Below, piece by piece: positions 1,285 through 30,399 of a stretch of 64,000 nucleotides of DNA. Under the pieces are notes generated by a model, which saw only the letters and a list, made by a program, of their open reading frames with translations, was not told the DNA's origin and searched no databases. The position numbers were made by a program, and so were the translations under genes. How positions within the stretch are numbered: position 1 is the first letter of the stretch; every line of letters starts with the position of its first letter. Where the stretch lies: the IMG/VR virus record IMGVR_UViG_3300006155_000009, one strand, 5' to 3'. This DNA is from an uncultured virus (IMG/VR IMGVR_UViG_3300006155_000009). Taxonomy: Duplodnaviria; Heunggongvirae; Uroviricota; Caudoviricetes.

Positions 1285-1383
1285 CCCTTTCGGTATGGAC
1301 ATATTCGCTCTAAATGTGGATAATAGCAAGTCAATTCTAAGAATAAACTACATAATTCCACTCCGGCATATTTGTGTAGTTTA
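1285..1383 (-). promoter_or_regulatory. Composite promoter motif copy A
   Basis: TACACAA-16-TTATGTAGTTTA-13-CTTGCTA-12-AGAGCGAATATGT..ACCGAAAGGG. Confidence 0.8.
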
Positions 1384-1473
1384 CGTGGCCATAGCTCAGG
1401 GGTGCGGCCCGCTTGCCATGATGTTGTACGAGAGCAAGCCCCCTCTGGGGCTTGGCTTTCGGCTGGGGGTGGT

Positions 1474-1812
1474 TTACCGCCCGGTGCGGCATTCCCATTC
1501 GAACTCGGCGTAGGCTTCGTAGTCGTCCCGGAACCTTTCGTCGTCGTCGATGGACTCGTAGTCGTAGTCGATTCCAAGGAGCTCCTCAAAGGTGGTGCCT
1601 TTCCCGGTGGCGGCTTCCTTGGCGAAGTCCTCAGCGTTTTCCTTGACCCAAGCTTTGAATTCGGAATCCGTCATGTCCTCGTTCTCGATCTCCACTTCGT
1701 ACTCCCATTCGGCATCTGCCCAGGTGATGGTCGCTTTGGAAATCCGCTCCTCTGCGTTCCAGTCGCTCTTGCTGGCCTTTGCCCTGCTTAATGCCTGTGC
1801 GTAGCTGATCAT
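1474..1812 (-). CDS. Highly acidic small hypothetical protein (112 aa)
   Basis: GGAGG RBS; about 32 Asp/Glu residues. Confidence 0.8.
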   Translation of the reverse strand: MISYAQALSRAKASKSDWNAEERISKATITWADAEWEYEVEIENEDMTDSEFKAWVKENAEDFAKEAATGKGTTFEELLGIDYDYESIDDDERFRDDYEAYAEFEWECRTGR

Positions 1813-1838
1813 TTTTCGTTCCTCCGTTTTTCGTGTGT

Positions 1839-1939
1839 TCCCTTTCGGTAGTGTATTAATCACTCTAAAGCGGAGAAATAGCAAGACAATCCTGAGCATA
1901 AACTACACAAAGACAGGGGCTGGAAACTGTGTAGATTTA
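1839..1939 (-). promoter_or_regulatory. Composite promoter motif copy B
   Basis: TACACAG-16-TTGTGTAGTTTA-13-CTTGCTA-12-AGAGTGATTAATAC..ACCGAAAGGG. Confidence 0.8.
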
Positions 1940-1999
1940 CAGTGCCAAAAGCCGGGCGCAACGGCACCCGGCTCCCCAGAGGGGCGGCTGTGTTCCACC

Positions 2000-2572
2000 T
2001 TAATGCAGGCGGTAGACCTTGTTTCTGTACTTGACGGCGTAGGTGCCGCTGTACTTGCTGACCGTGACGTCGGCCTCGCAGATGCGCTTGACATTGAATT
2101 CCCGGCGGATGATGCGCTTGGCAATCTCCATGGCCTTGGCGGTGATGTCCTCGGTCTTGCTGTCCTGGTGCTTGGCAATGTACCGCTGGAACCGCAGCTG
2201 CTGGGCGGCGGTTGCTTCTTCCTGCGTTCCGTAGAACTTCCCGTGGTGGCGATCCGCCCCGATCTCATAGAAGCGTTCCCGGCTGATGATGTCGAGTCTG
2301 TTGTTCCAGAGGGTGCAGTAGTCGCTCTCGCAGTTCGGGATGACCTCGCTGTCCGCCCGGCCCACGATGATCTCCAGGCCCTCGATGGAAAGCTTGCCCC
2401 ATTCGTGGAAGGTTTCGACCAGGATGCGGATGACCTCGGTGCCGTTGGTGAGGTCGATGTGCGCATAGTCGCCCTGGCTGCCGCCCATGGTGCGGGTGTT
2501 GATGGTGTACCCATTAGCCAGGTACTCGGCGATGATGGCGGTGTACTTCTTGTTGATGTCAGCGTATTTCAT
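2000..2572 (-). CDS. Hypothetical protein (190 aa)
   Basis: AGAAAGGA RBS; phage-like codon usage. Confidence 0.8.
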   Translation of the reverse strand: MKYADINKKYTAIIAEYLANGYTINTRTMGGSQGDYAHIDLTNGTEVIRILVETFHEWGKLSIEGLEIIVGRADSEVIPNCESDYCTLWNNRLDIISRERFYEIGADRHHGKFYGTQEEATAAQQLRFQRYIAKHQDSKTEDITAKAMEIAKRIIRREFNVKRICEADVTVSKYSGTYAVKYRNKVYRLH

Positions 2573-2619: not shown

Positions 2620-2776
2620 CCTCTCGGTAGTGTATTAATCACTCTGAACCAAGATAATAGCAAGTCATTTTTGAGAATAAACTACACAATTTCAAACGGT
2701 CATGTTTGTGTAGATTTCGCCCCAGAATGCCTTGCTATTTCCTTTGTTCAGAGCGAATATGTGTGTACCGAAAGGG
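2620..2776. promoter_or_regulatory. Back-to-back composite promoter copies C (-) and D (+) sharing one inverted repeat
   Basis: Central TAAACTACACAA-16-TTGTGTAGATTT, with 13-CTTGCTA-12-AGAG(T/C)GA on each side. Confidence 0.85.
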
Positions 2777-2802: not shown

Positions 2803-2982
2803 ATGAAAACGAAATTTTACCTCAACGGCAAGAAAACCACCCGCAAGGCCATCCAGGAGCAGCTTGGGGCGGATTGGCTGGCCCGGATGCTGAAAGAAGC
2901 GAAAGAAACCTTCCTGGCTGACCCGCTGACCCAGAACGATTTCTTCATTGGGAACGGGATGCTGACCATCGCCTTTGAATGA
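2803..2982 (+). CDS. Hypothetical protein (59 aa)
   Basis: GGAGG RBS; MKTKFYLNGKK... Confidence 0.75.
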   Translation: MKTKFYLNGKKTTRKAIQEQLGADWLARMLKEAKETFLADPLTQNDFFIGNGMLTIAFE

Positions 2983-3268
2983 GCCAGCGAGACCGGGGGC
3001 AGGGCCGCAAGGCCCTGTTTGCCGTTTGTGGCCCCGTGTGGCGCGCCCTCTGGGTGGATGGGCGTTTATCCCTCCGCCACCGCTGAGGCCCACTGTGGCC
3101 AGCGACATGGGGCGGTGTGACCGCTTCCTGTTCTGTTTTCAAGGTGCTTATATCAACGGGGCGGCGATTGACTCCCCCGGTGCCGATGGGTAGACCCATG
3201 AGCGCCCGCCCCGGTGGGGGCGGCTGGACTTGCACCAGCGGCGGCGAATGCCGTCGGCCTTGCGGGCG

Positions 3269-3406
3269 TTAGTTTTCTTCCTGCTCCGCTGGTTCGTAAG
3301 TATCGCAGCCAGCTACGGAAATGTTTACGGCCTCCCCGCCGTAAGAGCAATGACCGTCAAGCCAGAACTCACAATCGGAACGGATGCATTTAATTTCAAG
3401 CATCAT
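3269..3406 (-). CDS. Small Cys-rich hypothetical protein (45 aa)
   Basis: AGAAAGGA RBS within the repeated hairpin module. Confidence 0.55.
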   Translation of the reverse strand: MMLEIKCIRSDCEFWLDGHCSYGGEAVNISVAGCDTYEPAEQEEN

Positions 3407-4898: not shown

Positions 4899-5108
4899 AT
4901 GACAGCACGCCAGATTGTCGAGATGGCCACGGGGTATTGTGGGGTATCGAACTCCGAGCTTGCCCGGCGCCTTGGCTGGTCTCCGCAGCTGTTGAACAAA
5001 CGGCTGAACACGGGGAAGTTCACAGTGGAGGAATGGGAGAAGATTGGGGAGGCCCTTGGAGCAACAGCGGGGGTCAGGTTCAAGTTCCCGGATGGCACAG
5101 AAATTTGA
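4899..5108 (+). CDS. XRE-family HTH transcriptional regulator
   Basis: SNSELARRLGWSPQLLNKRLNTGKFT HTH; GGAGGTG RBS. Confidence 0.85.
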   Translation: MTARQIVEMATGYCGVSNSELARRLGWSPQLLNKRLNTGKFTVEEWEKIGEALGATAGVRFKFPDGTEI

Positions 5109-5642: not shown

Positions 5643-6839
5643 CTATTTTGGATTGTTCGCAAATGCCTGGTTGACCTTCGAGATTAGATCCTTCGGTTGG
5701 TTATAGGTCAGGTGTGCGTAGATGTCCAGCGTGATTTTGGCGTGCTCATGGCCAGCCAGCACCTGCACCGTCTTGACGTCGACGCCGGCCAGGAGCAGGT
5801 TCGTGATATAGGTGTGCCGGAGCTGATGGGGCGTCACCTCAAAATCGATGCTGTACACCACATCGCTGTTGTGGGCGGCCCGCTCCCCCAGCACGGGTGT
5901 CACGGTATGCGGGATTTTCTGGCCGTTGACATAACGATAGTATGTCCGCTCCCTGACGGTGCGGGTTCGCACATACCCCCACACCCGACGCCACTGTGTT
6001 TCGGACAGCGCCCCACCGTCCCGATTGGCAATCACAAAATCGGAGGTGGACTTCTCCTTGATGTCCTTCAAGCATTCCACCAGCTGGAGCGGGATGGGGA
6101 TCGTCCTCTTTGCCGCCTTCGTCTTCAGGTCGGTCAGGATGACCGGCCTGTTGTGTTCTGTGTGCCAGGCCCGGCAAACGGTGATGTGCGGGGCGTCCCC
6201 CTCAAGGAAGACGCTGTCCCACTGGAGGGCCAGGGCCTCCTCCCGGCGCAGGCCGGAGTAAAGGCACAGCATGATAAATGGATAGGGCGGCAGGCCCCGG
6301 ACCGCGTCCAGGAGGGTGGTGACTTGCTCATCGGTGAGGGCTTTCTTCTCCTTCGGAGTTTTTCCGCCGCGGGGGTTTAGATTCTTGCAGGGAGACTCAT
6401 CAATAATGTGGCTCTCCAATGCGGAGCCGAAGATCATCTTGTAGAGCATCTGCACTCCCCGGTAGATTGAAGCTGACTGTGCAGCGGCCTTGTTGATGGC
6501 CATCTTCACATCGTCCGGGGTAACCTCGGCCATGTACTTTTTCCCCAGCGGCTCTATGATATAAATCTTGACCTTGGAGGTGTAGTCCACGAGGGTGGTC
6601 GTGCGGACATGGGAGCCGTGCATGGCGAGCCACTTGGTGGCGTACTCCTCCACGGTTGGGTTATCCCGGTGATAGACGTCCTCCTCGATCTCCCGCTGGA
6701 CGGCGGCGATTTTTTCCGTCAACTCCTCTGGCGTCTTGGCGTAAAGGGAGATACGCCGTCCGTCCGGCCCCTTGATCCGTTTCCTATACTCACCTCGGCT
6801 TGCAACAAATCCATAGGTAGGTTTTTTGGGTCGAGCCAT
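5643..6839 (-). CDS. int: Tyrosine integrase
   Basis: SGLRREE, HQLRHTY, LAGH..TLDIY catalytic motifs. Confidence 0.95.
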   Translation of the reverse strand: MARPKKPTYGFVASRGEYRKRIKGPDGRRISLYAKTPEELTEKIAAVQREIEEDVYHRDNPTVEEYATKWLAMHGSHVRTTTLVDYTSKVKIYIIEPLGKKYMAEVTPDDVKMAINKAAAQSASIYRGVQMLYKMIFGSALESHIIDESPCKNLNPRGGKTPKEKKALTDEQVTTLLDAVRGLPPYPFIMLCLYSGLRREEALALQWDSVFLEGDAPHITVCRAWHTEHNRPVILTDLKTKAAKRTIPIPLQLVECLKDIKEKSTSDFVIANRDGGALSETQWRRVWGYVRTRTVRERTYYRYVNGQKIPHTVTPVLGERAAHNSDVVYSIDFEVTPHQLRHTYITNLLLAGVDVKTVQVLAGHEHAKITLDIYAHLTYNQPKDLISKVNQAFANNPK

Positions 6840-15232: not shown

Positions 15233-15314
15233 TACCCAACATCGGGCGCAAATATTTGTGTAGTTTATGGTCTGAATTAACTTGCTATTCCCATTGAACA
15301 GAGTGATTAATGTG
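15233..15314 (+). promoter_or_regulatory. Composite promoter motif copy E
   Basis: TACCCAA-16-TTGTGTAGTTTA-13-CTTGCTA-12-AGAGTGATTAATGT. Confidence 0.8.
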
Positions 15315-15415: not shown

Positions 15416-17368
15416 ATGAAAATGCAGCTTGTTTCCCTGACGCTTGAAAATTTCAAGTGTCACGAGCACCTGGAGATCCGTTTTGACGGCAGGAACGCCG
15501 CCATCTACGGCCAGAACGCCGCCGGCAAGTCCAGCATCTACGACGGCCTCACCTGGCTCCTGTTCGGCAAGGACAGCCACGGGAAGAAGGACTTCGACAT
15601 CAAGCCCCTCACGCTGGAGGGCAACGTGAAAGACCACCACGCGATCACCTCGGTGGAGGCGGTGCTTCTGGTGGACGGCGCGGAGCGGAAGTTGAAGCGC
15701 ACCTACTACGAGATCTGGAGCACCAAGCGCGGCAGCGCCGAGGCCACCTTCGACGGCCACAGCAGCGACTACTTTGTGGACGATGTGCCCTGCAAAAAGA
15801 ACGAGTTCGCCCGCCGGGTGGGGGAGATTATCGAGGAGAACGCCTTCCGCCTGCTCACCAGCATCACCTACTTTGCGGCGGAGCTGCCCTGGCAGGAGCG
15901 CCGGGCCACCCTGTTCGATGTGGCTGCGGTAGCCACGGACGACGAGATCCTGGCCAGCGATGCCCGGTTTGCACCCCTGACAGTAGCCATGCAGGGGCTG
16001 ACGCTGGACGATTTCCGCAAAAAGCTGGATGTTCAGCGCAAGGGGTTGAACAATGTGCGCAACGATACTCCGGCGCGGTTGGATGAGTGCAAGAAGACGG
16101 TGGCTGACCTCTCCGGTATCGACTTCCCCGCTCTGGAGCGCCAGAGGGCAGAGACGCAGGAGCGGCGGGCTGCGACCCAGCGGGAATTGGATCAGGCGGA
16201 GCAGGACGGCGGCAGAACGGAACTGCGGAACAAGCTGGCCGGCATCCGCAATGAGCTGGGGCAGCTTGAAAATGAGAACACTGCCCACCGCCTCAAGCTG
16301 AAAGCTGAAAGCGGACAGGACAAGGCCGCCGCGCTCCAGCAGAGCCTCAATTCCCTCCGCGCACGGGAAACCCGCCGCCAGCGCGACCTTGAGTATTTGC
16401 GCGGCCGCCAGACGGCCCTGGAGGGCGACGTGACGGCCTGCCGCGCCCGGTGGGATACCATCAACGGCGAGCGGTTCAAGGGCGGCTCCTGCCCCACCTG
16501 TGGCCAACCGTTGCCCAAGGGAAAGCTGGAAGCGTCCCAGGCCGCTTTTGAGAAAGACAAGGAGCGCCGCAAGAGCGAGGCGGTGGAGGCCGCAAACCGC
16601 GCCAAGGCCACGCTGGCGGGCGTCCAGGCCGACATCGCAAAGCTGGAGCAGGAGGCCACTGAGGATTTAAAGCAGGCGGACAGTCTGACCGCCCAGCTCA
16701 AGGCGCTGGAAGGCGCGCAGCGGCCGGAAATCAGCGACATGGACGGCTATGCCAGCCGGAAGGCGGAACTGGAGGCGCAGGCGGCGGAGGCTCAGAAGGA
16801 ACTGGACGGCTTGACCGCCAGCACCACCGCCCGTCAGAAGGTCCTCCGGGACGCGCTGGCCGACGTGGACCAGGAACTGGAACGGCTGGGCGGCGAGCTG
16901 GCGAAAAAGACGGCCCTGGAGTACGCCAACAAGAGGATGGAGGAGCTGCGGGCGCAAGCCGCTGCCGCATCCGATGAATTGAACCAGCTGGACGGAATGC
17001 TGTTCCTCTGCGACGAGTTCGTGCGCTACAAGGTCAAGTTCATCGAGGAGAGCATCAACCGCCGGTTCTCCCTGGTGCGGTTCCGGCTCTTCAAGGAGCA
17101 GATCAACGGCGGCCTGGAGGACTGCTGCGATGTGACGGTGAACGGCATCCCCTACGCCACTGGCCTGAACAGCGGGGCCAAGGTCAACGCCGGCATCGAC
17201 ATCATCAACACGCTTTCCAGGCACTACGGCGCCCAGGTACCCTTGTTCGTGGACAATGCCGAGAGCGTGACCCAGCTGGCCCAGGCCGACACGCAGGTGA
17301 TCCGCCTGGTGGTTTCCGAGTCCGACAAGGAATTGCGGTGTGAGCTCACCGACGGGGGGCTTCACTGA
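15416..17368 (+). CDS. SbcC/Rad50-like SMC-family ATPase
   Basis: Walker A GQNAAGKSS, coiled coil with CPTCGQ hook, LNSG signature, FVDNAES Walker B. Confidence 0.9.
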   Translation: MKMQLVSLTLENFKCHEHLEIRFDGRNAAIYGQNAAGKSSIYDGLTWLLFGKDSHGKKDFDIKPLTLEGNVKDHHAITSVEAVLLVDGAERKLKRTYYEIWSTKRGSAEATFDGHSSDYFVDDVPCKKNEFARRVGEIIEENAFRLLTSITYFAAELPWQERRATLFDVAAVATDDEILASDARFAPLTVAMQGLTLDDFRKKLDVQRKGLNNVRNDTPARLDECKKTVADLSGIDFPALERQRAETQERRAATQRELDQAEQDGGRTELRNKLAGIRNELGQLENENTAHRLKLKAESGQDKAAALQQSLNSLRARETRRQRDLEYLRGRQTALEGDVTACRARWDTINGERFKGGSCPTCGQPLPKGKLEASQAAFEKDKERRKSEAVEAANRAKATLAGVQADIAKLEQEATEDLKQADSLTAQLKALEGAQRPEISDMDGYASRKAELEAQAAEAQKELDGLTASTTARQKVLRDALADVDQELERLGGELAKKTALEYANKRMEELRAQAAAASDELNQLDGMLFLCDEFVRYKVKFIEESINRRFSLVRFRLFKEQINGGLEDCCDVTVNGIPYATGLNSGAKVNAGIDIINTLSRHYGAQVPLFVDNAESVTQLAQADTQVIRLVVSESDKELRCELTDGGLH

Positions 17369-17739
17369 TGATTGCCCTGGTGGTCAATACCAAGAATGAG
17401 ATCCGCCGGGTGGAGTATGACCCGCCCCACTATGATGTCATCAAGGAAGCTGTTGGCGGGTGGTACGAGCACGTCCACCCCATGGGCCTTGACCGGCCGT
17501 ACAGCATGATGGTGAACGAGGAGGGGTTACTGCTTGGCCTGCCGATGAATCGGCTCGGCTCGGAGCTCTATGGCACTCCCAAGCATGGCCAGCCCATTGT
17601 CGGGGACATCGTTTTCCTCAAGGACGGTTACCACGAAGGGGAGCCTGACACAGTCGGCATGACTGAGGACGAGGCCCAGCGCCTGGGCGATAAGTTTGTC
17701 AAGATGACCGGCGGCATTGTCCGCTGGGCAAAGGAATAA
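17368..17739 (+). CDS. DUF3846-like protein
   Basis: AVGGWYE..MVNEEG.L.GLPMN..IVGDIVF. Confidence 0.7.
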   Translation: MIALVVNTKNEIRRVEYDPPHYDVIKEAVGGWYEHVHPMGLDRPYSMMVNEEGLLLGLPMNRLGSELYGTPKHGQPIVGDIVFLKDGYHEGEPDTVGMTEDEAQRLGDKFVKMTGGIVRWAKE

Positions 17740-17742
17740 GGG

Positions 17743-18417
17743 GTGAAAGCTGAAATGAGTTTGAAAATCAAAAAGAAGTCCGGCTCCTCAGTGCCGCCGA
17801 TGGATGCCGGAACCTACCCGGCGGTGTGCGTCGGCATCGTTGACCTGGGGGAGCAGTACAGCGAAACCTTCAAGAAGTACAACGACAAGATGCTGGTCAT
17901 TTGGGAGATCCCCTCCCAGACCATCGAGATCGACGGCGAGGACAAGCCCCGCTGGCTCAGCAAAGACTTCTCCGCCTCCCTCCACGAGAAGAGCGGCCTC
18001 TATCAGACGCTGGTGTCCTGGCGGGGGAAGGCATTCACCGAGGCGGAACTCACGGAGGACGAGAACGGTTTCATGCAGTTTTCCGTCTTGGATATGCTGG
18101 GTACCGGCTGTTTCCTGCAGGTCATCGTGGAGGAAAAAGACAGCGGCAGCTACAACCGCATTACATCCGTTATTGCCCTGCCGGCGGGAATGGATGCACC
18201 GAAAACGGAAACCCCGCTCATCGCCTTCGACATCGATGCCTGGGATGATGAGGTATTCAACTCCCTGCCGGGGTGGATTCAGGAGCGGATCAAGAAGTCC
18301 ACCCAATATCAGAAACTCCATGTGCCCACCGACCCAGTGGATGTGGACACCAGCGGCGGGCAGAAGCCTGAAGCCGCTGCCGGCGCACAGGAGAAGAAGG
18401 AGGAAAATCCCATATGA
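17743..18417 (+). CDS. Putative ssDNA-binding/recombination-associated protein
   Basis: GTYPAVCVGIVDLGEQ.. N-terminus, acidic tail, position between ATPase and MBL nuclease. Confidence 0.55.
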   Translation: MKAEMSLKIKKKSGSSVPPMDAGTYPAVCVGIVDLGEQYSETFKKYNDKMLVIWEIPSQTIEIDGEDKPRWLSKDFSASLHEKSGLYQTLVSWRGKAFTEAELTEDENGFMQFSVLDMLGTGCFLQVIVEEKDSGSYNRITSVIALPAGMDAPKTETPLIAFDIDAWDDEVFNSLPGWIQERIKKSTQYQKLHVPTDPVDVDTSGGQKPEAAAGAQEKKEENPI

Positions 18418-19112
18418 CCTTCACCTCGCTTGCCAGCTCCTCCCATGGGAACTGCTATGTGGTCAGCGATGGCCAGACGGTGATCCTCCTGGAGTGCGGT
18501 ATCTCCTTCCGCAAAATCAAGAAGGGACTGGGCTTTGACCTTTCCAACATCCGGGCCTGCCTGGTCAGCCACGAGCACAAAGACCACGCAAAGAGCGTTA
18601 TGGACCTCATCAAATCCGGTGTGGAGGTTTTCGCAAGTGAGGGGACTGCCGACGCCTTGGGCTGCGACCTGATTTCCGCTGTAGCGGATCGGGTCCAGCT
18701 CCAGGTGGGCAGCCTGGAGATCATGCCCTTCGCAACCTTCCATGACGCTGCGGAACCGCTGGGGTTCCTGATTTACAGTCGAACGGACGGGGAGCGGCTT
18801 GTGTTCGCCACTGACACCGTTAACCTGGGCTATCGCTTTCCCGGAGTGAACCTCCTGGCGCTGGAGGCCAACTACGATGCCGCTATCCTTGCCCGTTGCG
18901 AGAGGATGCCGGAGAAGGTGAAAAAGCGCGTCACCAACAGCCACATGGAGATCAATACGCTGTGCCAGTATCTGCGCACCCTGGACTTGTCGGCCTGCCG
19001 TGCGCTGTACCTCCTGCACCTGTCCAACGCCGCCAGCAACGAGGGCAATTTCATCAACCGGGTGCGGCAAGCGGTGCCATGCCACGTCCAAGTCATCATC
19101 TGCGCAGAATAG
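18414..19112 (+). CDS. Metallo-beta-lactamase-fold hydrolase (nuclease)
   Basis: SSSHGNCY, SHEHKDH, HDAAEP, ATDT, EANYD, LHLS. Confidence 0.9.
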   Translation: MTFTSLASSSHGNCYVVSDGQTVILLECGISFRKIKKGLGFDLSNIRACLVSHEHKDHAKSVMDLIKSGVEVFASEGTADALGCDLISAVADRVQLQVGSLEIMPFATFHDAAEPLGFLIYSRTDGERLVFATDTVNLGYRFPGVNLLALEANYDAAILARCERMPEKVKKRVTNSHMEINTLCQYLRTLDLSACRALYLLHLSNAASNEGNFINRVRQAVPCHVQVIICAE

Positions 19113-23084: not shown

Positions 23085-23099
23085 AGAAAGGCGAGGAGG

Positions 23100-23995: not shown

Positions 23996-24098
23996 CAGCT
24001 GACTGGTTATGGATTGGCTATGTGATTGGCTTCGTGACGGCTGACTGGATTTTGCCGGCTATTGGCGAGTGGCTGGATAAGAGAAGGGGGAAGAAACC

Positions 24099-24551
24099 GT
24101 GAAGGCGCTCACCATCTGGCAGCCCTGGGCTTCTCTGCTGGCATCCGGTCGGAAGAAGTACGAAACCCGCAGCTGGGCCACCTCCTATCGCGGCCCCATC
24201 GCTATCCATGCGGCTAAGCGGCCGGTGCGTCAGACTATCGACGCGCTGGTCGCTGACCGCGGGGACGGGTGGACCACGCTGGACTACTTTGAGAGCCTGT
24301 TCATGCGGCCTGGGGAGCTGGACCATCTGCCTACCGGGGCTGTCGTGGGAACGGCACTCCTGACCCGCTGCCACCTTATCACAGAGGACTTCGTGGCGAA
24401 GCTCACGCCCATGGAGCGCGCCCTGGGGGATTTCACCCTGGGGCGGTACGCCTGGGAGTTTCACGGGAGAGTTCCCCTTGACTCGCCGATACCGGCAAAA
24501 GGGATGCAGGGGCTTTGGGAGCTGAATCTGAAGGAGGAAATGCTATGTTGA
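24099..24551 (+). CDS. ASCH domain protein
   Basis: ALTIWQPWASLL..GRKKYETRSW..YRGPIAIHA..GMQGLW. Confidence 0.9.
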   Translation: MKALTIWQPWASLLASGRKKYETRSWATSYRGPIAIHAAKRPVRQTIDALVADRGDGWTTLDYFESLFMRPGELDHLPTGAVVGTALLTRCHLITEDFVAKLTPMERALGDFTLGRYAWEFHGRVPLDSPIPAKGMQGLWELNLKEEMLC

Positions 24552-24862
24552 TTGTAAGCCAAAACAGGAAATGCCTGCTCAACATGGAGAGGGCTGGAAC
24601 TGTTTTCCTTTCGTCCCTCTATGGAGGTCATGAGGAGGGGGAGCCTGTCAAGGTGCTGGCCTCCTTCCCTCTGGCCGAGGATGTCACCGAGAGCCTGGGG
24701 GAGTACGAGAGCGAGGCCAGGGCCATGGAGGTGCTGGAGGAAATCGCTGACGAGTACGGTAAGTATCTGAGGGCCGATGGCGGACTCCTCGCCACGGCAA
24801 ACTTCTACGCACCGCCATTCGCCTTTGCTCCGCCGAAGATCTACAAGATGCCGTTGGAGTGA
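24545..24862 (+). CDS. Hypothetical protein
   Basis: MLIVSQN..LGEYESEARAMEVL; AAGGAGG RBS. Confidence 0.7.
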   Translation: MLIVSQNRKCLLNMERAGTVFLSSLYGGHEEGEPVKVLASFPLAEDVTESLGEYESEARAMEVLEEIADEYGKYLRADGGLLATANFYAPPFAFAPPKIYKMPLE

Positions 24863-24880
24863 GGGGGGGGGAGAAGGCAG

Positions 24881-25117
24881 TTGAAAATTACGAGTTTTCA
24901 AGCGGCGAACTTCACCGGCTACGCTGGCGAGCGTTTCAGATTCCAGACGCTGGATGATAACGGGGAGCCCGTGGGTCCCGTCCTGACCGGTGAGGTTAGA
25001 AGGGTGTTCCGGCAGGGGCGGCAAATCTCCGTGGAGCTCTATATCCCGGACAAGCACTGTACCCACATTAACGAGGCAAAACGAATCTACTACAAGGGGA
25101 GGGCCGCGAATAAATGA
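24881..25117 (+). CDS. Hypothetical protein
   Basis: Operon continuity. Confidence 0.55.
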   Translation: MKITSFQAANFTGYAGERFRFQTLDDNGEPVGPVLTGEVRRVFRQGRQISVELYIPDKHCTHINEAKRIYYKGRAANK

Positions 25118-25881
25118 GAAAAGCAATCGCAATCGACTTTGACGGGTGCCTCTGCACTGACACCTACCCGGAGATTGGGGAACCAAACTGGCCTGTTATC
25201 AGACGAGCCCGGGCGGAGCAGCGGGCCGGGGCTGGCCTGATCCTCTGGACCTGCCGGGAGGATCAGCTTCTCCTGGACGCCATTGCTGCCTGTGGGGGCT
25301 GGGGCCTGACCTTCGATGCCGTGAACGAGAGCCTGCCGGACTGGATTGAGGAATTCGGAACCCGCCCCCGGAAGATCGGTGCGACCGAGTATTGGGACGA
25401 CAAAGCGGCGCGGATTCCTACAACGCAGCGATTCTTTGTGGGTGGGGCCGGCGACGGTTCCATAGAGCTGTTCGAGCCCGTTCCGGGCAACGAGAACATG
25501 AACTTGAAGCCTTGCCCATTCTGCGGAGGAACCAGCATATTCTACGAAAGGTATGGCAGCCCGGCAGGCGAACGGTGGCGCTGCTGGTGCGCTGAGTGCC
25601 TTGCTGGTATTGACCCAGGCGTAGCGCAGGAGATGGGGCAGGTTCGGGAGATGTGGAACAAAAGGGCTGTACCGTCAAACCTTCCCCTAACCCTGGACCA
25701 GCTTCGGGAGATGGACGGGGAGCCGGTATGCATTGCCCCGGTAGATGGAGGCCCATATACATGGATGCTGGTCGATACGAAATACGAGGTTTGCCGTGAA
25801 GCACACGGCGGCTTGGCGGTATTCGAGAACCTTGGCAAGACCTGGGTGGCTTACCGCCACAAACCGGAGAATGGGGCATGA
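25114..25881 (+). CDS. HAD-like hydrolase fused to a Lar-like zinc finger
   Basis: IAIDFDG..WTCR..K..YWDDKA; LKPCPFCGG..C..C..WNKR. Confidence 0.75.
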   Translation: MRKAIAIDFDGCLCTDTYPEIGEPNWPVIRRARAEQRAGAGLILWTCREDQLLLDAIAACGGWGLTFDAVNESLPDWIEEFGTRPRKIGATEYWDDKAARIPTTQRFFVGGAGDGSIELFEPVPGNENMNLKPCPFCGGTSIFYERYGSPAGERWRCWCAECLAGIDPGVAQEMGQVREMWNKRAVPSNLPLTLDQLREMDGEPVCIAPVDGGPYTWMLVDTKYEVCREAHGGLAVFENLGKTWVAYRHKPENGA

Positions 25882-26042
25882 GCAGAAGAAGTGGGAACAG
25901 CCGGGGCGGGATGCAGTCCGCTGGTGCGCATCCGTCCATCTACTGCCCGGTCTGCCGGAAACCTGCGGCCAGATATGAGCCGGGGGTCGGCTGGATGCAC
26001 TTCACGAAAACTGGCTCGGTTTGGCACAAAGAGAAACCGGGC

Positions 26043-26068
26043 CAAAATCCCAAACGTCTGGGATTTTG
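26043..26068. repeat. 26-bp palindrome copy 4
   Basis: CAAAATCCCAAACGTCTGGGATTTTG (one central mismatch from a perfect palindrome). Confidence 0.85.
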
Positions 26069-26099
26069 AAGGAATACATAGCACGGAGGGGCTGGTGGC

Positions 26100-26498
26100 A
26101 TGACGCTGCAGGAACTATCGAAATACTACAAGCTACATGAGCGGTTAGAGCGGAACCGGGAGATGCTCGCGTCCCTGTACGCAGCGGCAGGGCCGGGGGC
26201 GCAGGTGATCACGGGGATGCCCCATGCGCCGGGAGTGTCGGACAAAGTGGGTGACTTGGCCATCGAGATCGGGGATCTGCAGAGCCGGATCGACCATCTC
26301 GAATCGAAGTGTGCCGAGGAGAAGAAAAAGCTGGAGAAGTACATCGGTGCCATCAAAGACGACCAGACCCGTATGATCTTCCGCCTGCGGTTCATCCACT
26401 GCATGACCTGGCTCCAGGTGGCCGAGGCCATCGGCGGCCGGAACACAGCCAACAGCGTCAAGCTGATCTGCCATCGCTACCTGAACCCCAAAAGTTGA
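26100..26498 (+). CDS. RinA/ArpU-like late transcriptional activator
   Basis: ITGMPHA..RMIFRLRFI..TWLQVAEAIG; last gene of the early operon. Confidence 0.75.
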   Translation: MTLQELSKYYKLHERLERNREMLASLYAAAGPGAQVITGMPHAPGVSDKVGDLAIEIGDLQSRIDHLESKCAEEKKKLEKYIGAIKDDQTRMIFRLRFIHCMTWLQVAEAIGGRNTANSVKLICHRYLNPKS

Positions 26499-26551
26499 AA
26501 CGGCGTGAAACGCTGTGAAACTTGACGAAACGCGCCTCTCCGTGATATGGT
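26496..26551 (+). promoter_or_regulatory. Putative late promoter with four phased GAAAC repeats
   Basis: (T/C)GAAAC at 26496, 26506, 26516, 26526; TTGACG-18-TATGGT with TG extension. Confidence 0.65.
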
Positions 26552-26725
26552 AGGCTTGCGAAAATCCTAAATCAGCCAGGCGGTCCTCCTCCGGGAGGGC
26601 CGCCATCCTTTTTGAAGGGAGGTTTTTGGCTCCGCGCTTTCTCTCCTTTGCGCGTGGTCTTGCATCGGGTACGGCGACCGCCAGAGCCGTTACAGCGGTG
26701 ACAGACGACAAAAGGAGGCTTCACG

Positions 26726-27973
26726 ATGGAAATTGTGAAGATGAAATTATCGGAGCTGAACCCGGCGGAGTACAACCCCCGGAAAGCTCTCAGGCCGGGA
26801 GATCCGGCCTATGAAAAGCTGAAGGCGTCCATCCTCTCCTTTGGGAATGTGGAGCCCGTCGTGTGGAACCGCAGCACAGGGAATGTGGTCGGCGGCCACC
26901 AGCGGCTCCGTGTCCTTTTGGATCTGGGTGTGACGGAGAGCGAGGTCAGCGTGGTCGAGCTGTCCGAGGTGGACGAAAAGCGGCTGAACATCGCTCTCAA
27001 CAAAATCACTGGCGAATGGGATGACGAAAAGCTGACGTCCCTGCTGGCTGACCTCACCGCCGGCGGCGCGGACGTGTATCCCACCGGCTTTGACGAACAG
27101 GAACTTTCCTCCATGTTCGCCGATCTCACCAAGGCGGCCGCGCACGATGATGACTTCGACCTCACCGCCGCCCTGGAGAAAGCCTCCTTCGTCAAGCGGG
27201 GCGACGTCTGGACGGTTGGTAGGCACCGCCTCATGTGCGGCGATGCCACCTCCGTCGAGGACGTGGCCACGCTGATGGACGGGAAGAAGGCCAACCTCAT
27301 CCTGACCGATCCCCCCTATGGCGTCTCCTTCAAGTCCTCGGATGGGCTGACCATTCAAAACGACTCCATCAAGGGGGATGACTTTTACCGTTTTCTCCTC
27401 CAATCCCTTACAAACATGGTCGCCCACCTGGAGCCAGGAGGGGCGGCCTATGTTTTTCATGCGGATACGGAGGGGCTCAATTTCCGCCGGGCGTTCATTG
27501 ACGCTGGCCTGCACCTGGCTGGGGTGTGTATCTGGGTGAAGAACTCCCTGGTGCTGGGCCGCAGCGACTACCAGTGGCAGCATGAGCCGGTTCTGTACGG
27601 CTTCCTTCAGAACGGCAAGCACCGCTGGTATTCCGACCGCAAGCAGACCACCATCTGGAACTACGACAAGCCCAAGCGGAACGAGAACCACCCTACCTCC
27701 AAGCCGCTGGATCTACTGGGCTATCCAATTCAAAACTCATCCCAGGAGAACGCCATCGTTCTGGATACCTTCGGCGGCTCCGGCTCCACCCTTATGGCCT
27801 GTGAGCAGCTGGGGCGGATCTGCCACACGATGGAACTGGATGAGAAATATGCCTCCGTCATCCTCCGTCGCTATGCGGAGGGCTCCGGGGACACCTGCGG
27901 CATCCACGTCCTTCGAGACGGGGAGCGTATCCCCTACGCAGACCTGGTCAAAGAGGTCGGCGCCGGTGGATAG
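26726..27973 (+). CDS. ParB-like N-domain + N6/N4 DNA methyltransferase
   Basis: YNPRK..VGGHQRL; TDPPY; HPTSKP; LDTFGGSGST. Confidence 0.92.
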   Translation: MEIVKMKLSELNPAEYNPRKALRPGDPAYEKLKASILSFGNVEPVVWNRSTGNVVGGHQRLRVLLDLGVTESEVSVVELSEVDEKRLNIALNKITGEWDDEKLTSLLADLTAGGADVYPTGFDEQELSSMFADLTKAAAHDDDFDLTAALEKASFVKRGDVWTVGRHRLMCGDATSVEDVATLMDGKKANLILTDPPYGVSFKSSDGLTIQNDSIKGDDFYRFLLQSLTNMVAHLEPGGAAYVFHADTEGLNFRRAFIDAGLHLAGVCIWVKNSLVLGRSDYQWQHEPVLYGFLQNGKHRWYSDRKQTTIWNYDKPKRNENHPTSKPLDLLGYPIQNSSQENAIVLDTFGGSGSTLMACEQLGRICHTMELDEKYASVILRRYAEGSGDTCGIHVLRDGERIPYADLVKEVGAGG

Positions 27974-29552
27974 GTTAAAGCTGGGGAGCCTGTTTGACGG
28001 CTCCGGGGGCTTCCCCTTGGGCGGCCTGCTGGCTGGCGTTACCCCGGTGTGGGCCTCAGAAATCGAGCCGTTCCCCATCCGGGTAACCACAAAGCGGCTG
28101 CCGGGGATGCGGCATCTGGGAGACGTGTCCTCTATCAACGGCGCGGAGATCGAGCCGGTGGACATCATCACCTTCGGCTCACCCTGCACCGACATGAGCA
28201 TCGCCGGCAAGCGGGCCGGTCTGGAGGGGGCACAGTCCTCCCTTTTCTATCAGGCCATCCGCATCATCAAAGAAATGAGGTGTGCAACCAATGGACAATA
28301 CCCGCGCTGGGTCTGCTGGGAGAACGTTGTTGGGGCCTTCAGCTCGAATCAGGGCTTCGACTTCAAGGCGGTCCTCGATGCGGTCATCGGTATCGCAGAG
28401 CCGGGGGCCTCGGTGCCTATGCCTGAGAAAAACCGATGGCCCTACGCCGACATTTACATGGGAGACCGATGGAGCATTGCGTACAGAGTTTTTGATGCAC
28501 AATTCTGGGGAGTCCCCCAGCGAAGGCGCCGCTGTTACCTTGTCGGAGATCTTAGAGGCCAATGCGCCGGACGGGTACTCTTTGAGTCCGAGGGCCTGTC
28601 TGGGTATTCTGCGGCGAGCTTCCGCACGTGGCAAAGAGCTGCCCGATATCCTTCGGCGGGCACTGGAGCTGCAGGCGGGATCTGCTTGAACGACCAGGGC
28701 GGGGGCCGCATGGACATCTCGGAGGAGGTGGCCAGCACCCTCCGGGCGGAGAGCCACGGCCACCCGCCCTGTGTGATGGCGGCAGGCTTCTGCACGGAGC
28801 ATTCCGCCGCAAGCCGGTCTATCGGCTATGGCGAGGAGTGCTCCCCAACGCTCCGGGCCGGGGTGGTCCCCGCCGCTGTGTATGAGAACCACAGCCAGGA
28901 CACGCGCTACACCGGCCCCCTCGATACTGCTCCCACGGTCAGCTCTACCTACGGCACCGGGGGCAACAACCAGCCCTTTGTGGTGGGGATGCGGACATAC
29001 GATGTCCGTTTCACTTCGGAGGGCACAAGAAACGCCCGACAGAACGTTTACGAGACGGACACCGCCAGGACTATCGACACCGGGGGCAATCCCCCGGATT
29101 CCAACCAGGGCGGGGTGGCGGTGGTGGCTGACCCTGCGGCCTACGCCATGACCATGTGCGGATTTCCACAGGTCAGTAAGGAGCAGGCCCCCACGCTGCT
29201 GGCGCGGGATTTCAAAGACCCAACAGCAGTCAACCGGGGATACACCGTGAGAAGGCTGACCCCCACAGAGTGTGCCAGGTTACAGGGGTTCCCGGACTGG
29301 TGGTGCGCCGGCCTGGAGACCCCGGAGCCGACAGAGGAGGACATCACCTTCTGGTCGGAGGTCTGGGAGACCCACCGCAGGATCATAGGGGCGGCCACCA
29401 AGCCCAAGACAAGGAACCAGATCGTCAGCTGGCTGCAGTCTCCGCATTCGGATTCTGCCGAGTACAAAATGTGGGGGAACGGGGTCGCGCTGCCCAATGT
29501 GTTCTTTGTGCTGGCTGGCATTGTGTGGTCTACACAAGAGTGGCCTGGATAA
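27966..29552 (+). CDS. C5-cytosine DNA methyltransferase
   Basis: SLFDGSGG, GSPC, WENV, QRRRR, RRLTPTECARLQGFPD, GNGV. Confidence 0.92.
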   Translation: MDRLKLGSLFDGSGGFPLGGLLAGVTPVWASEIEPFPIRVTTKRLPGMRHLGDVSSINGAEIEPVDIITFGSPCTDMSIAGKRAGLEGAQSSLFYQAIRIIKEMRCATNGQYPRWVCWENVVGAFSSNQGFDFKAVLDAVIGIAEPGASVPMPEKNRWPYADIYMGDRWSIAYRVFDAQFWGVPQRRRRCYLVGDLRGQCAGRVLFESEGLSGYSAASFRTWQRAARYPSAGTGAAGGICLNDQGGGRMDISEEVASTLRAESHGHPPCVMAAGFCTEHSAASRSIGYGEECSPTLRAGVVPAAVYENHSQDTRYTGPLDTAPTVSSTYGTGGNNQPFVVGMRTYDVRFTSEGTRNARQNVYETDTARTIDTGGNPPDSNQGGVAVVADPAAYAMTMCGFPQVSKEQAPTLLARDFKDPTAVNRGYTVRRLTPTECARLQGFPDWWCAGLETPEPTEEDITFWSEVWETHRRIIGAATKPKTRNQIVSWLQSPHSDSAEYKMWGNGVALPNVFFVLAGIVWSTQEWPG

Positions 29553-29612
29553 TTTGTGATAGTCAGGCTGAGAAATGACTTGCTATTTGTGGCCTACAGA
29601 GTGATATATGTA
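29531..29612 (+). promoter_or_regulatory. Composite promoter motif copy F
   Basis: TACACAA-16-TTGTGATAGTCA-13-CTTGCTA-12-AGAGTGATATATGT. Confidence 0.75.
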
Positions 29613-29640
29613 GCCAACAAAAGCAAGGAGGCAGACAGCC

Positions 29641-30303
29641 ATGACAATCAAATACAACCGCACCGGGGCCGACCGCAAGTCTCTGGTCGATGCCATCGCC
29701 AACATCACCGGGGCCGAGGCCAAGTACCTGGGCGCCCCCAGCTTTGCCTACCAAGTGGACTATTTCACCATTGACCGCAGCGGCACCGTCACCTTCGACG
29801 ACCGGGCCGACAGCGAGGAGATCGAGAACCTCATCGAGCGACTGGCCAGCATGGGCTTTGAGGCCGACGCCGGGGCGGAGCAGCCCTCGGCGCACGATGG
29901 GCTCACCATTCAGATGCCCGCGGACAGCTTCACCCCGGAGGCCCTCAACAACCTCCACAGCCTCATCGCCGCCAAGGGGCGGCTGATCCGCAAGGCCCTG
30001 GGTGTTGACCTGCTGCCGGTCCAGGTGGAGGCCGACACGGTTTCCTTCCCCTGGTTCAGCGGTGAGACCACCGCCGAGGAGGTCAAGGCATACACGCACC
30101 TGATCACCGCGCTCTGCGACATGGCGCGGAACCAGAAGCGCATCACCGCCAAGGATAAGGACACCGACAACGACAAGTACGCATTCCGGTGTTTCCTCCT
30201 CCGGCTGGGCTTCATCGGGGCCGAGTACAAGGAGGAGCGGAAGATTCTGCTCCGTAACCTCACCGGCTCCTCGGCCTTCAAATCCGGCGGCAAGGCGGTG
30301 TAA
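29641..30303 (+). CDS. 'Virulence-related'-type phage protein, paralogous to the amidoligase C-terminus
   Basis: YLGAPSFAYQV..NDKYAFRCFLLRLGFIG..NLTGSSAF. Confidence 0.8.
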   Translation: MTIKYNRTGADRKSLVDAIANITGAEAKYLGAPSFAYQVDYFTIDRSGTVTFDDRADSEEIENLIERLASMGFEADAGAEQPSAHDGLTIQMPADSFTPEALNNLHSLIAAKGRLIRKALGVDLLPVQVEADTVSFPWFSGETTAEEVKAYTHLITALCDMARNQKRITAKDKDTDNDKYAFRCFLLRLGFIGAEYKEERKILLRNLTGSSAFKSGGKAV

Positions 30304-30399
30304 ATACACCAAAACAAGCCCCACATCCTTGTGTACTTTATGGCTCGAAATAACTTGCTATTAACTCCGTTTAGAGTGATTAATACACTACCGAAAGGG
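30301..30399 (+). promoter_or_regulatory. Composite promoter motif copy G
   Basis: TACACCA-17-TTGTGTACTTTA-13-CTTGCTA-12-AGAGTGATTAATAC..ACCGAAAGGG. Confidence 0.8.

Follow-up and report, generated by a model that had tools for sequence, protein, structure and literature searches.

In the P2/P4 Ogr-Delta and Mu C/Mor systems, several promoters of one phage share a dyad at a fixed upstream distance and depend on a small phage activator. One such promoter in Mu guards the DNA-modification gene mom, and a zinc-finger protein adds translational control. Temperate phages also carry morons, accessory cassettes with their own promoter and terminator; no conserved promoter common to morons is known from phages of different classes of bacteria. 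The late activators of the Ltr superfamily (RinA, ArpU, LtrA/Sigma70_r4, LtrB/DUF1492 and LtrC) and their terS promoters are described by Quiles-Puchalt et al. (2013, PMC3753634).

The locus considered here lies in a 64-kb stretch of prophage DNA (the window, meaning the whole stretch that was analysed) and comprises seven copies of an element that is a real, conserved and portable predicted promoter-operator module, defining a putative accessory regulon. Our preferred reading, to which we would give roughly even odds (about 0.5), is that the seven repeats are transcription-initiation cassettes, with a core most likely read by the host housekeeping RNA polymerase and an inverted repeat bound by a dimeric regulator. 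The core would consist of a promoter of sigma-70-family type (-35 TTGCTA, 17-nt spacer, -10 GAWWAW, with invariant A-11 and G-14), a conserved start region with an A-rich unstructured leader TACCGAAAGGGAAAACA, and a ribosome-binding site; in the present lineage an inverted repeat with 12-nt arms is added. Such a core would be a portable promoter that accompanies an accessory gene island and occurs in the prophages of many Bacillota; in the present phage it would have been extended to seven units, among them four small ORFs and an SbcC-like recombination operon. The repeat, placed like the site of a class-I activator, would couple the seven units.

Seven copies with one geometry

The octamer CTTGCTAT occurs exactly seven times in the window, once in each copy:

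1285..1383 (-): c1, octamer at 1330, arms 1344-1355 and 1372-1383, weight-matrix score 47.9; predicted -35 TTGCTA 1324-1329, -10 GAATAT 1301-1306, start ~1294, leader ACCGAAAGGG
1839..1939 (-): c2, octamer at 1885, proximal arm 1899-1910, score 57.6; predicted -35 1879-1884, -10 GATTAA 1856-1861, start ~1849
2620..2717 (-): c3, octamer at 2664, inverted repeat in common with c4, score 59.6; predicted -35 2658-2663, -10 2635-2640, start ~2628
2678..2776 (+): c4, divergent from c3, octamer at 2731, shared arms 2678-2689 and 2706-2717, score 39.2; predicted -35 2732-2737, -10 GAATAT 2755-2760, start ~2767
15233..15314 (+): c5, octamer at 15281, proximal arm 15256-15267, distal arm degenerate, score 45.2; predicted -35 15282-15287, -10 15305-15310, start ~15317
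29531..29612 (+): c6, octamer at 29579, overlapping the 3' end of a C5-methylase gene, score 61.3; predicted -35 29580-29585, -10 GATATA 29603-29608, start ~29615
30301..30399 (+): c7, octamer at 30354, arms ~30301-30312 and 30329-30340, score 64.5; predicted -35 30355-30360, -10 GATTAA 30378-30383, start ~30390

AGAG(T/C)GA starts exactly 11 nt after CTTGCTAT in every copy, and the copies align without gaps, with constant lengths and variable sequence between the boxes (arm to arm 16 nt, arm to CTTGCTAT 13 nt, CTTGCTAT to AGAG 11 nt). Scored with a weight matrix derived from 148 unrelated viral sites, the seven copies reach 39-64 bits; no other position of the window exceeds 8, and the highest score in five shuffles was 5.8. 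Weaker additional copies are absent; the seven with exact geometry make up the window total. Octamer count, weight matrix and alignment agree with the initial annotation on where the copies lie and on their rigid spacing. Its statement that every copy is aimed at a gene also holds, with a start codon 62-135 nt downstream in all seven (69, 73, 92, 72, 135, 62 and 73 nt from CTTGCTAT for c1 to c7). A near-identical prophage (G001) retains the boxes, with a diverged loop, spacers and leader.

The initial annotation saw no consensus -10 at 17 nt from the -35-like TTGCTA. A -10-like hexamer with A-11 (GATTAA, GAATAT or GATATA) does sit exactly 17 nt past TTGCTA. It is further correct that ACCGA(A/G)AGG lies 3' of five copies (c1-c4 and c7), c5 and c6 deviating there, but the small GNRA-loop hairpin that had been read into this sequence has only 2 bp (-1.6 kcal/mol, z ~0) and finds no thermodynamic support. 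From the predicted start, the leader is unstructured in five of the seven copies; that of c5 is strongly structured over 100 nt (-40.3 kcal/mol, z -4.06).

A core shared across phages and the genes behind it

Reduced to CTTGCTAT-N11-AGAGYGAWWWAT with a TACC-type leader, the core has exact copies in at least 148 viral-contig stretches. Leave-one-out scoring makes 142 of the 148 viral sites family members among the matches listed, and the GC content around these sites ranges from 0.23 to 0.58. Ninety of 141 genome sites score as real, and the named ones are all Bacillota with one exception, a Succinivibrionaceae MAG. In the related host genome G001, the 11 zero-mismatch matches to a degenerate family pattern are confined to two prophage regions, with host genes free of them. 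The core is a promoter type common to hundreds of phages of Gram-positive, mostly gut, bacteria; far from being peculiar to the present phage, it forms a widely distributed class that moves with the amidoligase island among Bacillota.

The same architecture was found in a motif-independent sample anchored on amidoligase homology, in 65 of 79 loci, 55 of them distinct. Among these 55, the -35 is TTGCTA in 20, TGGATA in 19 and TTGATA in 11, and the -10 is GAATAT in 26, TAATAT in 18 and GATATA in 7; A-11, G-14 and the 17-nt spacer are present in all 55 and T-7 in 45. One phage (G003) carries mixed -35/-10 variants within a single genome.

The genes and units behind the seven copies, together with neighbouring features, are:

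1055..1261 (-): gene behind c1, 68 aa, no family match
1474..1812 (-): gene behind c2, 112 aa, no family match
2000..2572 (-): gene behind c3, 190 aa, phrog_38037 (unknown function)
2803..2982 (+): gene behind c4, 59 aa, no family match
15416..19112 (+): unit behind c5, with an SbcC-like ATPase (15416-17368), DUF3846, phrog_862 and a metallo-beta-lactamase-fold hydrolase
26726..27973 (+): ParB_N-like protein with N6/N4 DNA methylase; the ParB_N match is weak, below the Pfam cut-off
29641..30303 (+): gene behind c6, a degenerate ("dead") amidoligase paralogue, 220 aa, phrog_2443, no Pfam family
30427..32127 (+): unit behind c7, with Amidoligase_2 (30427-31377), a gamma-glutamyl cyclotransferase-like GGACT protein (31442-31951) and a 64-aa zinc-ribbon protein (31933-32127)
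32144..32173 (+): terminator-like hairpin, 12 pairs followed by TGTTTTGT, ending the c7 unit ahead of a small-terminase-like gene

The four small ORFs of the c1-c4 units sit between the lysis genes and the integrase, and the c3 gene has a homologue, 45% identical, in Faecalibacterium phage FP_Taranis. The dead amidoligase has only a middle stretch and its C-terminal 72 aa in common with the enzyme. Across the family the island contains the ParB-methylase, the dead amidoligase, amidoligase-GGCT, Nmad4, DUF7698, DUF4314 and sometimes a serine integrase. A scan of other genomes for co-occurring genes, as proposed in the initial annotation, does return recurring downstream genes, chiefly amidoligases: among the matches listed (149 downstream ORFs), 70 are amidoligases, 15 DUF7698, 9 Nmad4 and 7 serine recombinases, and a further Resolvase/Recombinase ORF lies behind the core in G001:C2. 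The grouping of amidoligase, recombination and small unknown genes is upheld, and relatives extend it to DNA-modification-type genes (Nmad4, adjoining ParB-methylases). Likewise, the copies behave as transcription-initiation cassettes in being oriented to a gene, at a fixed distance to the ribosome-binding site, each bounding a self-contained unit. No publication met with in the literature searched describes a common promoter or regulon of phage amidoligase, gamma-glutamyl cyclotransferase or Nmad genes.

Candidate readers of the core and of the upstream repeat

Arms matching TTGTGTAGTTTA with at most 2 mismatches occur 10 times in the window against 1.36 expected, a number reached in none of 100 shuffles, and eight of the 10 fall within the seven copies. 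The arm-to-core distance is 13 nt in all seven, although c5 has a degenerate left arm and c6 a degenerate right one. The divergent c3/c4 pair was rightly described as sharing one repeat in both directions; centred at 2697.5, this repeat stands 33.5 nt away from either CTTGCTAT and is equidistant from both promoters. A centre ~70 nt upstream of the predicted start is a plausible seat for a dimeric activator, and to this extent the earlier proposal of a dimer on the repeat stands. The repeat is, however, a single-lineage add-on, restricted to one sub-lineage (at most 21 of the 148 viral sites among the matches listed); since most family members lack it, it cannot be essential to the core. A search by co-occurrence yielded no candidate protein that tracks the repeat: the HTH protein at 4899-5108 has no homologue in the 9 genomes compared, and the zinc-ribbon phrog_2945 of the c7 unit, found clearly in 5 and weakly in one of 22 motif-bearing records, does not follow it either.

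Two readings would deny the element a primary role as a promoter. The conserved block could chiefly encode a structured 5' leader RNA or riboregulator, transcribed from a start further upstream, rather than being a promoter. The box spacer does show complementarity to its own leader beyond the controls (mean longest stem 5.42 nt against 4.81-4.89; stems of at least 7 nt at 23 sites against 3-15), and the c7 spacer CTCCGTTT has its complement, AAACGGAG, at the ribosome-binding site, where RNA carrying the spacer would pair over 8 nt (-13.2 kcal/mol, z -2.5). However, the copies match no Rfam 15 model, whether at gathering score or at E<=1, fixed-register covariation is nil (largest excess 0.12), the c3/c4 pair leaves only the 40-nt repeat as space for an upstream promoter, and the boxes vary in the manner of -35 and -10 hexamers. 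We find this reading barely credible; the complementarity is better explained as an anti-ribosome-binding-site that may silence read-through transcripts. It is likewise highly improbable that the repeats are mainly recombination or cassette-exchange sites with secondary promoter activity. The third small-gene unit has kept its promoter and differs in its gene between the window and the near-identical G001 prophage, contigs of one run join c5 to c7 (15289 to 30370) and also the c7 leader to the c2 gene, and the island moves among very different phages. Yet these contig joints may be artefacts that arose in assembly at 31-mer repeats, the same mosaics would result without a dedicated function from homologous recombination in any 60-nt block that is shared, and the orientation, fixed start-codon distance and hexamer-like variation are properties of promoters.

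If the core is a promoter, its reader has to be considered. None of the phage regulators listed in the initial annotation could be linked to the element. The best candidate is the RinA/Ltr-like protein at 26100-26498, with two long helices and a sigma region-4-like domain, which might activate the seven promoters; these would then be "late" promoters. Its family is of the DUF1492/Sigma70_r4 kind by weak matches (DUF1492 in 18 and Sigma70_r4_2 in 15 of 97 relatives), its model (pLDDT 93.4) has a C-terminal sigma-4-like domain (3vep_D, probability 0.99, with an E-value of 0.78 that exceeds 0.001), and phrog_36 matches occur in all 22 motif-bearing viral records, mostly 2-9 kb upstream on the same strand. 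Late operons are activated by Ltr proteins, according to PMC3753634. On the other hand, phrog_36 also matches 12 of 14 ordinary control genomes, and the closest named homologues, in FP_Taranis (47% identity, annotated "RinA-like"), Pioen and Roos (37-47% over the three), come without the motif. Among 11 phage records searched, exact copies occur in one, a plausible 3-mismatch site in another and a chance-like match in a third. By tblastn the regulator is detectable at only 2 of 20 motif-bearing loci and is missing from the second G001 prophage region. The gene is followed directly by a different cognate promoter, with GAAAC four times at a 10-nt phase and then CGTGATATGG, and its relatives have different repeats with a similar box. 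As these repeats differ among relatives, regulator specificity varies, whereas the seven-copy core does not. The hairpin at 32144-32173, moreover, parts the c7 unit from the packaging genes. This protein is probably not the reader of the seven promoters, and a role as their activator is very unlikely. A dedicated factor of another kind (an alternative sigma, a sigma-appropriating protein, or an island-encoded or methylation-dependent specificity factor), for which CTTGCTAT and AGAGYGA would be recognition elements inactive with the housekeeping sigma alone, is possible but unlikely. The boxes are invariant over hosts with site neighbourhoods of 23 to 58% GC, the seven copies all escape a scan with the plain sigma-70 consensus, and the AGAG and the bases on either side of TTGCTA (C and TT) are more conserved than a housekeeping sigma is known to require. 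The confinement of the boxes to prophages in G001 suits a dedicated factor as well as sigma-A. Only three window proteins are common to all 8 motif-bearing phage genomes compared by tblastn, the ParB-methylase and the two amidoligases; the ParB-methylase and the dead amidoligase are missing from motif-free FP_Taranis, whose amidoligase operon is instead under a plain predicted TTGACA-17-TATAAT promoter. We consider it rather unlikely, all the same, that the core is the site of a factor travelling with, or part of, the ParB-methylase/amidoligase island, for example through methylation-gated or island-encoded specificity. The ParB_N match is weak, the dead amidoligase model has no DNA-binding fold (best PDB rows TM 0.2-0.3, E >0.001), and searches of Pfam, NCBIfam and PHROGs gave no sigma region-2 domain protein in the window. 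The core also drives serine integrases, which would be needed before or without late phage factors, and its natural variants drift to the housekeeping consensus.

The host housekeeping polymerase is nevertheless the most likely reader of the core. TTGCTA, present in all seven copies, matches TTGACA at 4 of 6 positions, and the TTGATA of 11 of the 55 relatives at 5 of 6. The spacer is 17 nt in all seven, within the sigma-70 range of 16-18 nt. In the -10, A-11 is constant, but G stands at -12 in all seven and T-7 is present in only two. Judged by sequence, the variants (TTGATA, TAATAT, 17-nt spacer) may be read as a sigma-70-family promoter rather than as the non-canonical or alternative-sigma promoter suggested earlier.

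It is unusual for ~26 specified bases to be kept across hundreds of phages with hosts of varied GC and different classes. The element offers a "guilt by promoter" approach to finding genes that are likely to be turned on along with the predicted phage amidoligases: dead-amidoligase paralogues, Nmad4, DUF7698, DUF4314, some serine integrases and, here, the SbcC-like operon. The role and timing of amidoligase islands, a long-standing question, also become testable for many phages at once. If the housekeeping polymerase reads the core, it would provide a ready-made portable promoter part for Clostridia; if not, there would be a new transcription factor or mechanism to find. Were a dedicated factor to travel with the island or be part of it, the island would be a self-contained "portable regulon" in phages of at least three Bacillota classes, and the spacer would double as an anti-ribosome-binding-site, with only transcripts begun at the core promoter being translated.

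Comparison with described phage systems

The present phage resembles the Ltr systems in encoding a small protein of that kind and in having promoters that are phage-specific and depart from the housekeeping consensus. A -10-like box, GTGATAT, is even common to the seven-copy core and the Ltr-type promoter at 26541-26550. In the published description, however, the Ltr systems have one promoter upstream of terS and regulator-specific sites, whereas the present phage has seven copies and none of them lies directly at terS. The core also stays unchanged among phages with Ltr proteins that BLAST finds unrelated (18 of 20 loci, tblastn), and the Ltr gene has a separate repeat-type promoter of its own.

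The layout is also like that of the Ogr/Mu C-type promoters: a dyad lies at a fixed distance upstream in all seven copies, albeit with degenerate arms in c5 and c6. The dyad differs in having 12-nt arms 16 nt apart and a centre at ~-70 rather than ~-55; the -35 is good instead of absent, and the hosts are Bacillota. Unlike in Mu, the zinc-ribbon protein of the c7 unit is no constant companion, being clear in only 5, with one weak match, of the 22 motif-bearing records.

The predicted enzymes behind c6, c7 and most family members are phage amidoligase (Amidoligase_2/PHROG 2443), gamma-glutamyl cyclotransferase and Nmad proteins. Like morons, the present units are small and autonomous, built of a promoter, one or a few genes and a hairpin; they lie between the lysis genes and the integrase and between regulator and packaging genes, and their cargo differs between close relatives. 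They depart from morons in that the core family has one conserved promoter across phages of different bacterial classes.

Seven copies of the core and its spread

The core of the repeated element consists of the octamer CTTGCTAT, which holds the -35 hexamer TTGCTA, followed after 11 nt by AGAG(T/C)GA and then by a leader of the TACC type; an inverted repeat with 12-nt arms is an addition upstream. The initial annotation had described seven rigidly spaced copies, and this description held: CTTGCTAT occurs exactly seven times in the window, each time with AGAG(T/C)GA 11 nt after it, the intervals of 16, 13 and 11 nt are constant across copies with spacers of varying sequence, and a gap-free alignment of all seven copies spans the distal repeat arm to the leader. 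Copies c1 to c3 lie on the minus strand and c4 to c7 on the plus strand. As had also been proposed, the divergent copies c3 and c4 share one inverted repeat symmetrically (33.5 nt from the repeat centre to each CTTGCTAT), and every copy faces a gene, with a start codon 62-135 nt downstream. The weight-matrix check that had been suggested was run with a matrix built from unrelated viral sites; the seven copies score 39-64 bits, the rest of the window reaches at most 8 bits, and five shuffles of the window peaked at 5.8 bits. The repeat arm is likewise enriched in the window, with 10 matches against 1.36 expected, a number reached by 0 of 100 shuffles.

Close relatives of the window phage are carried by the nearest genome, G001 (a related host genome of 2.8 Mb with prophages), and by the viral record G002. 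Between the G001 prophage and the window the boxes are unchanged, and the loop, the spacers and the leader have diverged, which on sequence comparison reads as a clean phylogenetic footprint. Further afield, an exact-pattern scan found the core in at least 148 viral-contig stretches. Among the viral matches listed, conservation extends beyond the fixed pattern positions to AAAT before the C, T after TAT, TTT before AGAG, and WWWAT after GA, then TACC, then an A-run; leave-one-out scoring assigns 142 of these 148 sites to the family, and the GC content of their neighbourhoods ranges from 23 to 58%. The same scan found the pattern in at least 139 stretches of one-genome-per-species contigs. When 141 genome sites among the matches listed were scored, 90 were family-like and 46 were clear chance matches in other phyla; the family-like ones that are named come from Clostridia, Negativicutes (Acidaminococcus, Selenomonas), Bacilli (Alkalibacterium, Tepidibacillus, Heyndrickxia), one Acholeplasmataceae MAG and one Succinivibrionaceae MAG. 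The core is a conserved, portable promoter-leader module, a larger finding than the initial annotation could see. In the portions of the literature searched by motif strings, DUF1492, phage amidoligase and Nmad there was no description of the core promoter, and in the available text of the Heliusvirales paper the word “promoter” occurs 0 times.

Genes behind the core

The window has a GC content of about 60% and belongs, by its Pfam, PHROGs and NCBIfam matches, to a temperate, contractile-tailed prophage or phage.

Gene order of the window
53-902: lysin end and holin (Pfam/PHROGs/NCBIfam)
5643-6839, minus strand: tyrosine integrase (Pfam/PHROGs/NCBIfam)
between integrase and SbcC-like ATPase: early and replication genes
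15416-17368: SbcC-like ATPase (Pfam/PHROGs/NCBIfam)
26100-26498: small RinA/Ltr-like protein
26726-27973: ParB_N-like/N6-N4 methylase
27966-29552: C5 methylase
29641-30303: degenerate amidoligase paralogue (behind c6)
30427-31377: amidoligase (behind c7)
31442-31951: GGACT cyclotransferase
31933-32127: zinc-ribbon protein
after the zinc-ribbon protein: terminase, portal, capsid, tail and baseplate genes
59882-61060: reverse transcriptase
62771-64000: lysin, running off the window end

Several features of the window stand apart from the core. It opens (1-902) inside an amidase-type lysin, of which the C-terminal end is included, with the holin next to it, and closes (62771-64000) within a lysin; the underlying arrangement may be circularly permuted or tandem, with the window cut out of it. 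On the minus strand at 3189-3270, in the stretch that separates the c4 unit from the integrase region, Rfam detects a self-cleaving ribozyme of the twister-sister class (RF02681; 82.1 bits, gathering score 34), and two small minus-strand genes lie 5' of it. Directly 5' of the reverse transcriptase gene sits an RT-2 RNA (RF03077, 171.6 bits), and the two (59665-61060, plus strand) resemble a diversity-generating-retroelement (DGR) cassette; a DGR target gene is annotated in the homologous region of FP_Taranis, a motif-free phage. At 13307-13986 (plus strand), in a locally low-GC stretch among the early genes, two adjoining ORFs match DUF4096 and DDE_Tnp_1_2; they are an inserted IS4/IS5-type transposase split in two.

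Families of the 149 ORFs behind viral sites among the matches listed (5 further sites had no ORF by the rule applied)
PHROG 2443 amidoligase, full-length or short paralogue: 70
phrog_21141 (Pfam DUF7698): 15
phrog_6231 (Pfam Nmad4, “nucleotide modification associated domain 4”): 9
large serine recombinases: 7
phrog_21303 (DUF6329): 4
phrog_4709 (DUF7678): 2
other families, one ORF each: 4
no family match: 38

The promoter module defines a putative accessory regulon centred on amidoligase and DNA-modification-type genes of predicted function. Amidoligases also make up 18 of the 34 downstream genes in 21 larger loci, and in the second G001 prophage a core copy lies 5' of a Resolvase/Recombinase/zinc-ribbon integrase. 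In a tblastn comparison using the window proteins, only the ParB-methylase, the degenerate (dead) amidoligase and the amidoligase were common to all 8 motif-bearing genomes compared; of the three, FP_Taranis has only the amidoligase by tblastn. What the core travels with is thus an accessory island and not a phage lineage. In the window phage it has been recruited by the SbcC-like operon (c5) and, between the lysis genes and the integrase, by four small ORFs (c1-c4); no SbcC-like gene stands behind the core elsewhere among the 149 viral ORFs of the matches listed.

The dead amidoligase and the amidoligase have in common a highly conserved C-terminal module, ...DNxKYAFRxxLLRLGFIGxEYKxxRKxLLxxLxGxSAFRxG, several positions of which are invariant across 13 diverse phages. 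A different gene is carried behind one copy in the window and in G001. Of four public runs compared with the window, three consisted of assembled contigs, with flat depth and no pile-up of starts or ends, and the raw-read RNA run had 6 spurious reads. In contigs of the public sequencing run X9 over window 14500-34499, position 15289 is joined to 30370 (c5 to c7), and the c7 leader runs on into the gene behind c2; such joints may come from an assembly cross-over at the repeated promoter or from real cassette shuffling.

Promoter elements, leaders and the upstream repeat

Because sites selected by the pattern would have made the reasoning circular, the promoter type was judged on a motif-independent sample of 80 loci gathered by amidoligase homology alone, 79 of which were inspected upstream, the remaining one having no upstream DNA. 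The same architecture is present in 65 of the 79, with 55 distinct sequences. In these 55, the hexamer at positions 1-6 after the C is TTGCTA (20), TGGATA (19), TTGATA (11), TTCCAA (4) or TTGCTC (1), and the hexamer exactly 17 nt further is GAATAT (26), TAATAT (18), GATATA (7), GATTAA (3) or TAACAT (1). The downstream hexamer has A at its second position in 55/55 and T at its last in 45/55, with a G three bases 5' of it in 55/55, and several hexamer variants are mixed within one phage, G003. Judged from sequence, the two hexamers vary as those of a sigma-70-family promoter would at -35 and -10. The register is thereby set: GATTAA, GAATAT and GATATA of the window would be the -10, and the conserved TACC would fall at the expected start. 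A consensus -10 is lacking, as remarked earlier, and none of the copies is called by a simple scan; even so, a -10 can be recognised. We put the probability that the element is a promoter module at about 0.8.

No Rfam family was found over the copies, nor any RNA covariation in a fixed register. Five leaders, those of c1, c2, c4, c6 and c7, have next to no structure when counted from the inferred start (-1.6 to -4.0 kcal/mol; z of -0.05 to -0.66 for c1, c2, c4 and c7, and -1.8 for c6), and the stem of the GNRA-loop hairpin suggested earlier amounts to two base pairs. The 100-nt c5 leader is strongly structured (-40.3 kcal/mol, z -4.06, a stability that none of 200 shuffles reached), with two strong hairpins (15317-15396, plus strand) and no Rfam match beyond chance miRNA matches.

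The 11-13 nt between the boxes are more complementary to their own leader than in composition-matched controls. For the viral sites among the matches listed, the mean longest spacer-leader stem is 5.42 nt versus 4.81-4.89 in controls, and stems of at least 7 nt occur in 23 of 148 sites versus 3-15. In c7 the spacer CTCCGTTT (30362-30372) pairs with AAACGGAG (30410-30417) at the ribosome-binding site, and a transcript containing the spacer has a predicted fold of -13.2 kcal/mol (z -2.5), against no fold for one initiated at the promoter; the c1 spacer is also complementary to the ribosome-binding-site region of its leader. The complementarity is a real but modest signal, and in a subset of sites the spacer may also act against the ribosome-binding site and in this way silence transcripts that read through.

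The inverted repeat is less widely distributed. Among the 148 pattern-selected viral sites of the matches listed, it occurs at the window geometry in at most 21, summed over four neighbouring registers (background elsewhere 0-3 sites per register), and in the strict ACAC-N18-22-GTGT form in 12. Within the window's own clade, represented by the amidoligase-anchored set, it is common: 28 of 55 sequences have at least 8 of 12 positions complementary. The arms are conserved without covariation and the loop is free, as would be expected of a protein-binding site more than of a hairpin. The repeat is equidistant from c3 and c4; counted from the inferred start, its centre lies near -70 and its arms near -56 and -84, which would be the usual position for an upstream (class-I-type) activator. 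That it is an activator site is a tentative reading, with chances a little short of even; the repeat is a putative lineage-specific operator of the promoter module. A comparison of gene content between repeat-bearing and repeat-free phages was confounded by relatedness, the whole replication block being shared. FP_Taranis (L178 16640-16700, minus strand) has an amidoligase operon with a perfect TTGACA-17-TATAAT promoter, whose spacer is a 17-nt palindrome, ACAACGAAATTCGTTGT; this is likely an operator, which would place the same genes under another control system.

Candidate readers of the core

The chances that the housekeeping polymerase reads the core are about even, and a dedicated factor seems rather unlikely. 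A host alternative-sigma regulon was rejected on the distribution of matches in G001: with up to 3 mismatches allowed, the strict pattern gave 10 copies, and the degenerate family pattern gave 11 of 11 zero-mismatch matches, all within two prophage regions; one match per pattern, at the mismatch limit, fell elsewhere, and control patterns gave 0-1 (strict) and 5 (degenerate) matches. The -24/-12 spacing of sigma-54 presumably does not fit, there being no GG 12 nt before GC, and only the GCGAATAT variant resembles a sigma-H-like -10. No sigma region-2 protein was found in the window with Pfam, PHROGs or NCBIfam.

At first sight the small RinA/Ltr-like protein has some of the properties expected of a reader of the seven promoters. 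Weak matches to SigF/ECF region 4 were obtained for it, its family includes members with DUF1492 or Sigma70_r4 matches, and a confident model predicts two long helices and a sigma-4-like domain. Matches to phrog_36 occur in 22 of 22 motif-bearing records, yet 12 of 14 ordinary control genomes match too. The nearest named relatives, gathered by tblastn of a phage collection, have neither the motif nor half-motifs: they are Pioen, Roos and FP_Taranis, whose protein is 47% identical and annotated “RinA-like transcriptional activator”. By tblastn with this protein, regulators were undetectable in 18 of 20 motif-bearing loci. Directly 3' of its gene (26497-26550, plus strand) lies a different promoter, in which CGTGATATGG is preceded by four copies of GAAAC in 10-nt phase; the GAAAC array occurs once in the window, and the element probably serves this protein as its late promoter of the Ltr type. 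Phased repeats of other kinds stand in FP_Taranis and in several viral loci; there too a similar box, TGATATGA/TAG, follows, and after it a conserved ...CAGC(A/G)AAA start region. The control regions of Ltr proteins are described as regulator-specific (PMC3753634), and the phased-repeat promoters match this description, which argues against an Ltr protein reading an invariant core. The RinA/Ltr-like protein was therefore rejected as the reader, on its motif-free relatives, the undetectable regulators and its own separate promoter.

Three other candidates fared no better. The zinc-ribbon protein does not track the repeat it might bind, the dead amidoligase has a good predicted model (pLDDT 85.9) in which no DNA-binding fold was found, and the N-terminus of the ParB-methylase has a sub-threshold ParB_N match only. 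As a system, the seven-copy promoter module can be likened to P2 Ogr, to Mu C/mom and to morons.
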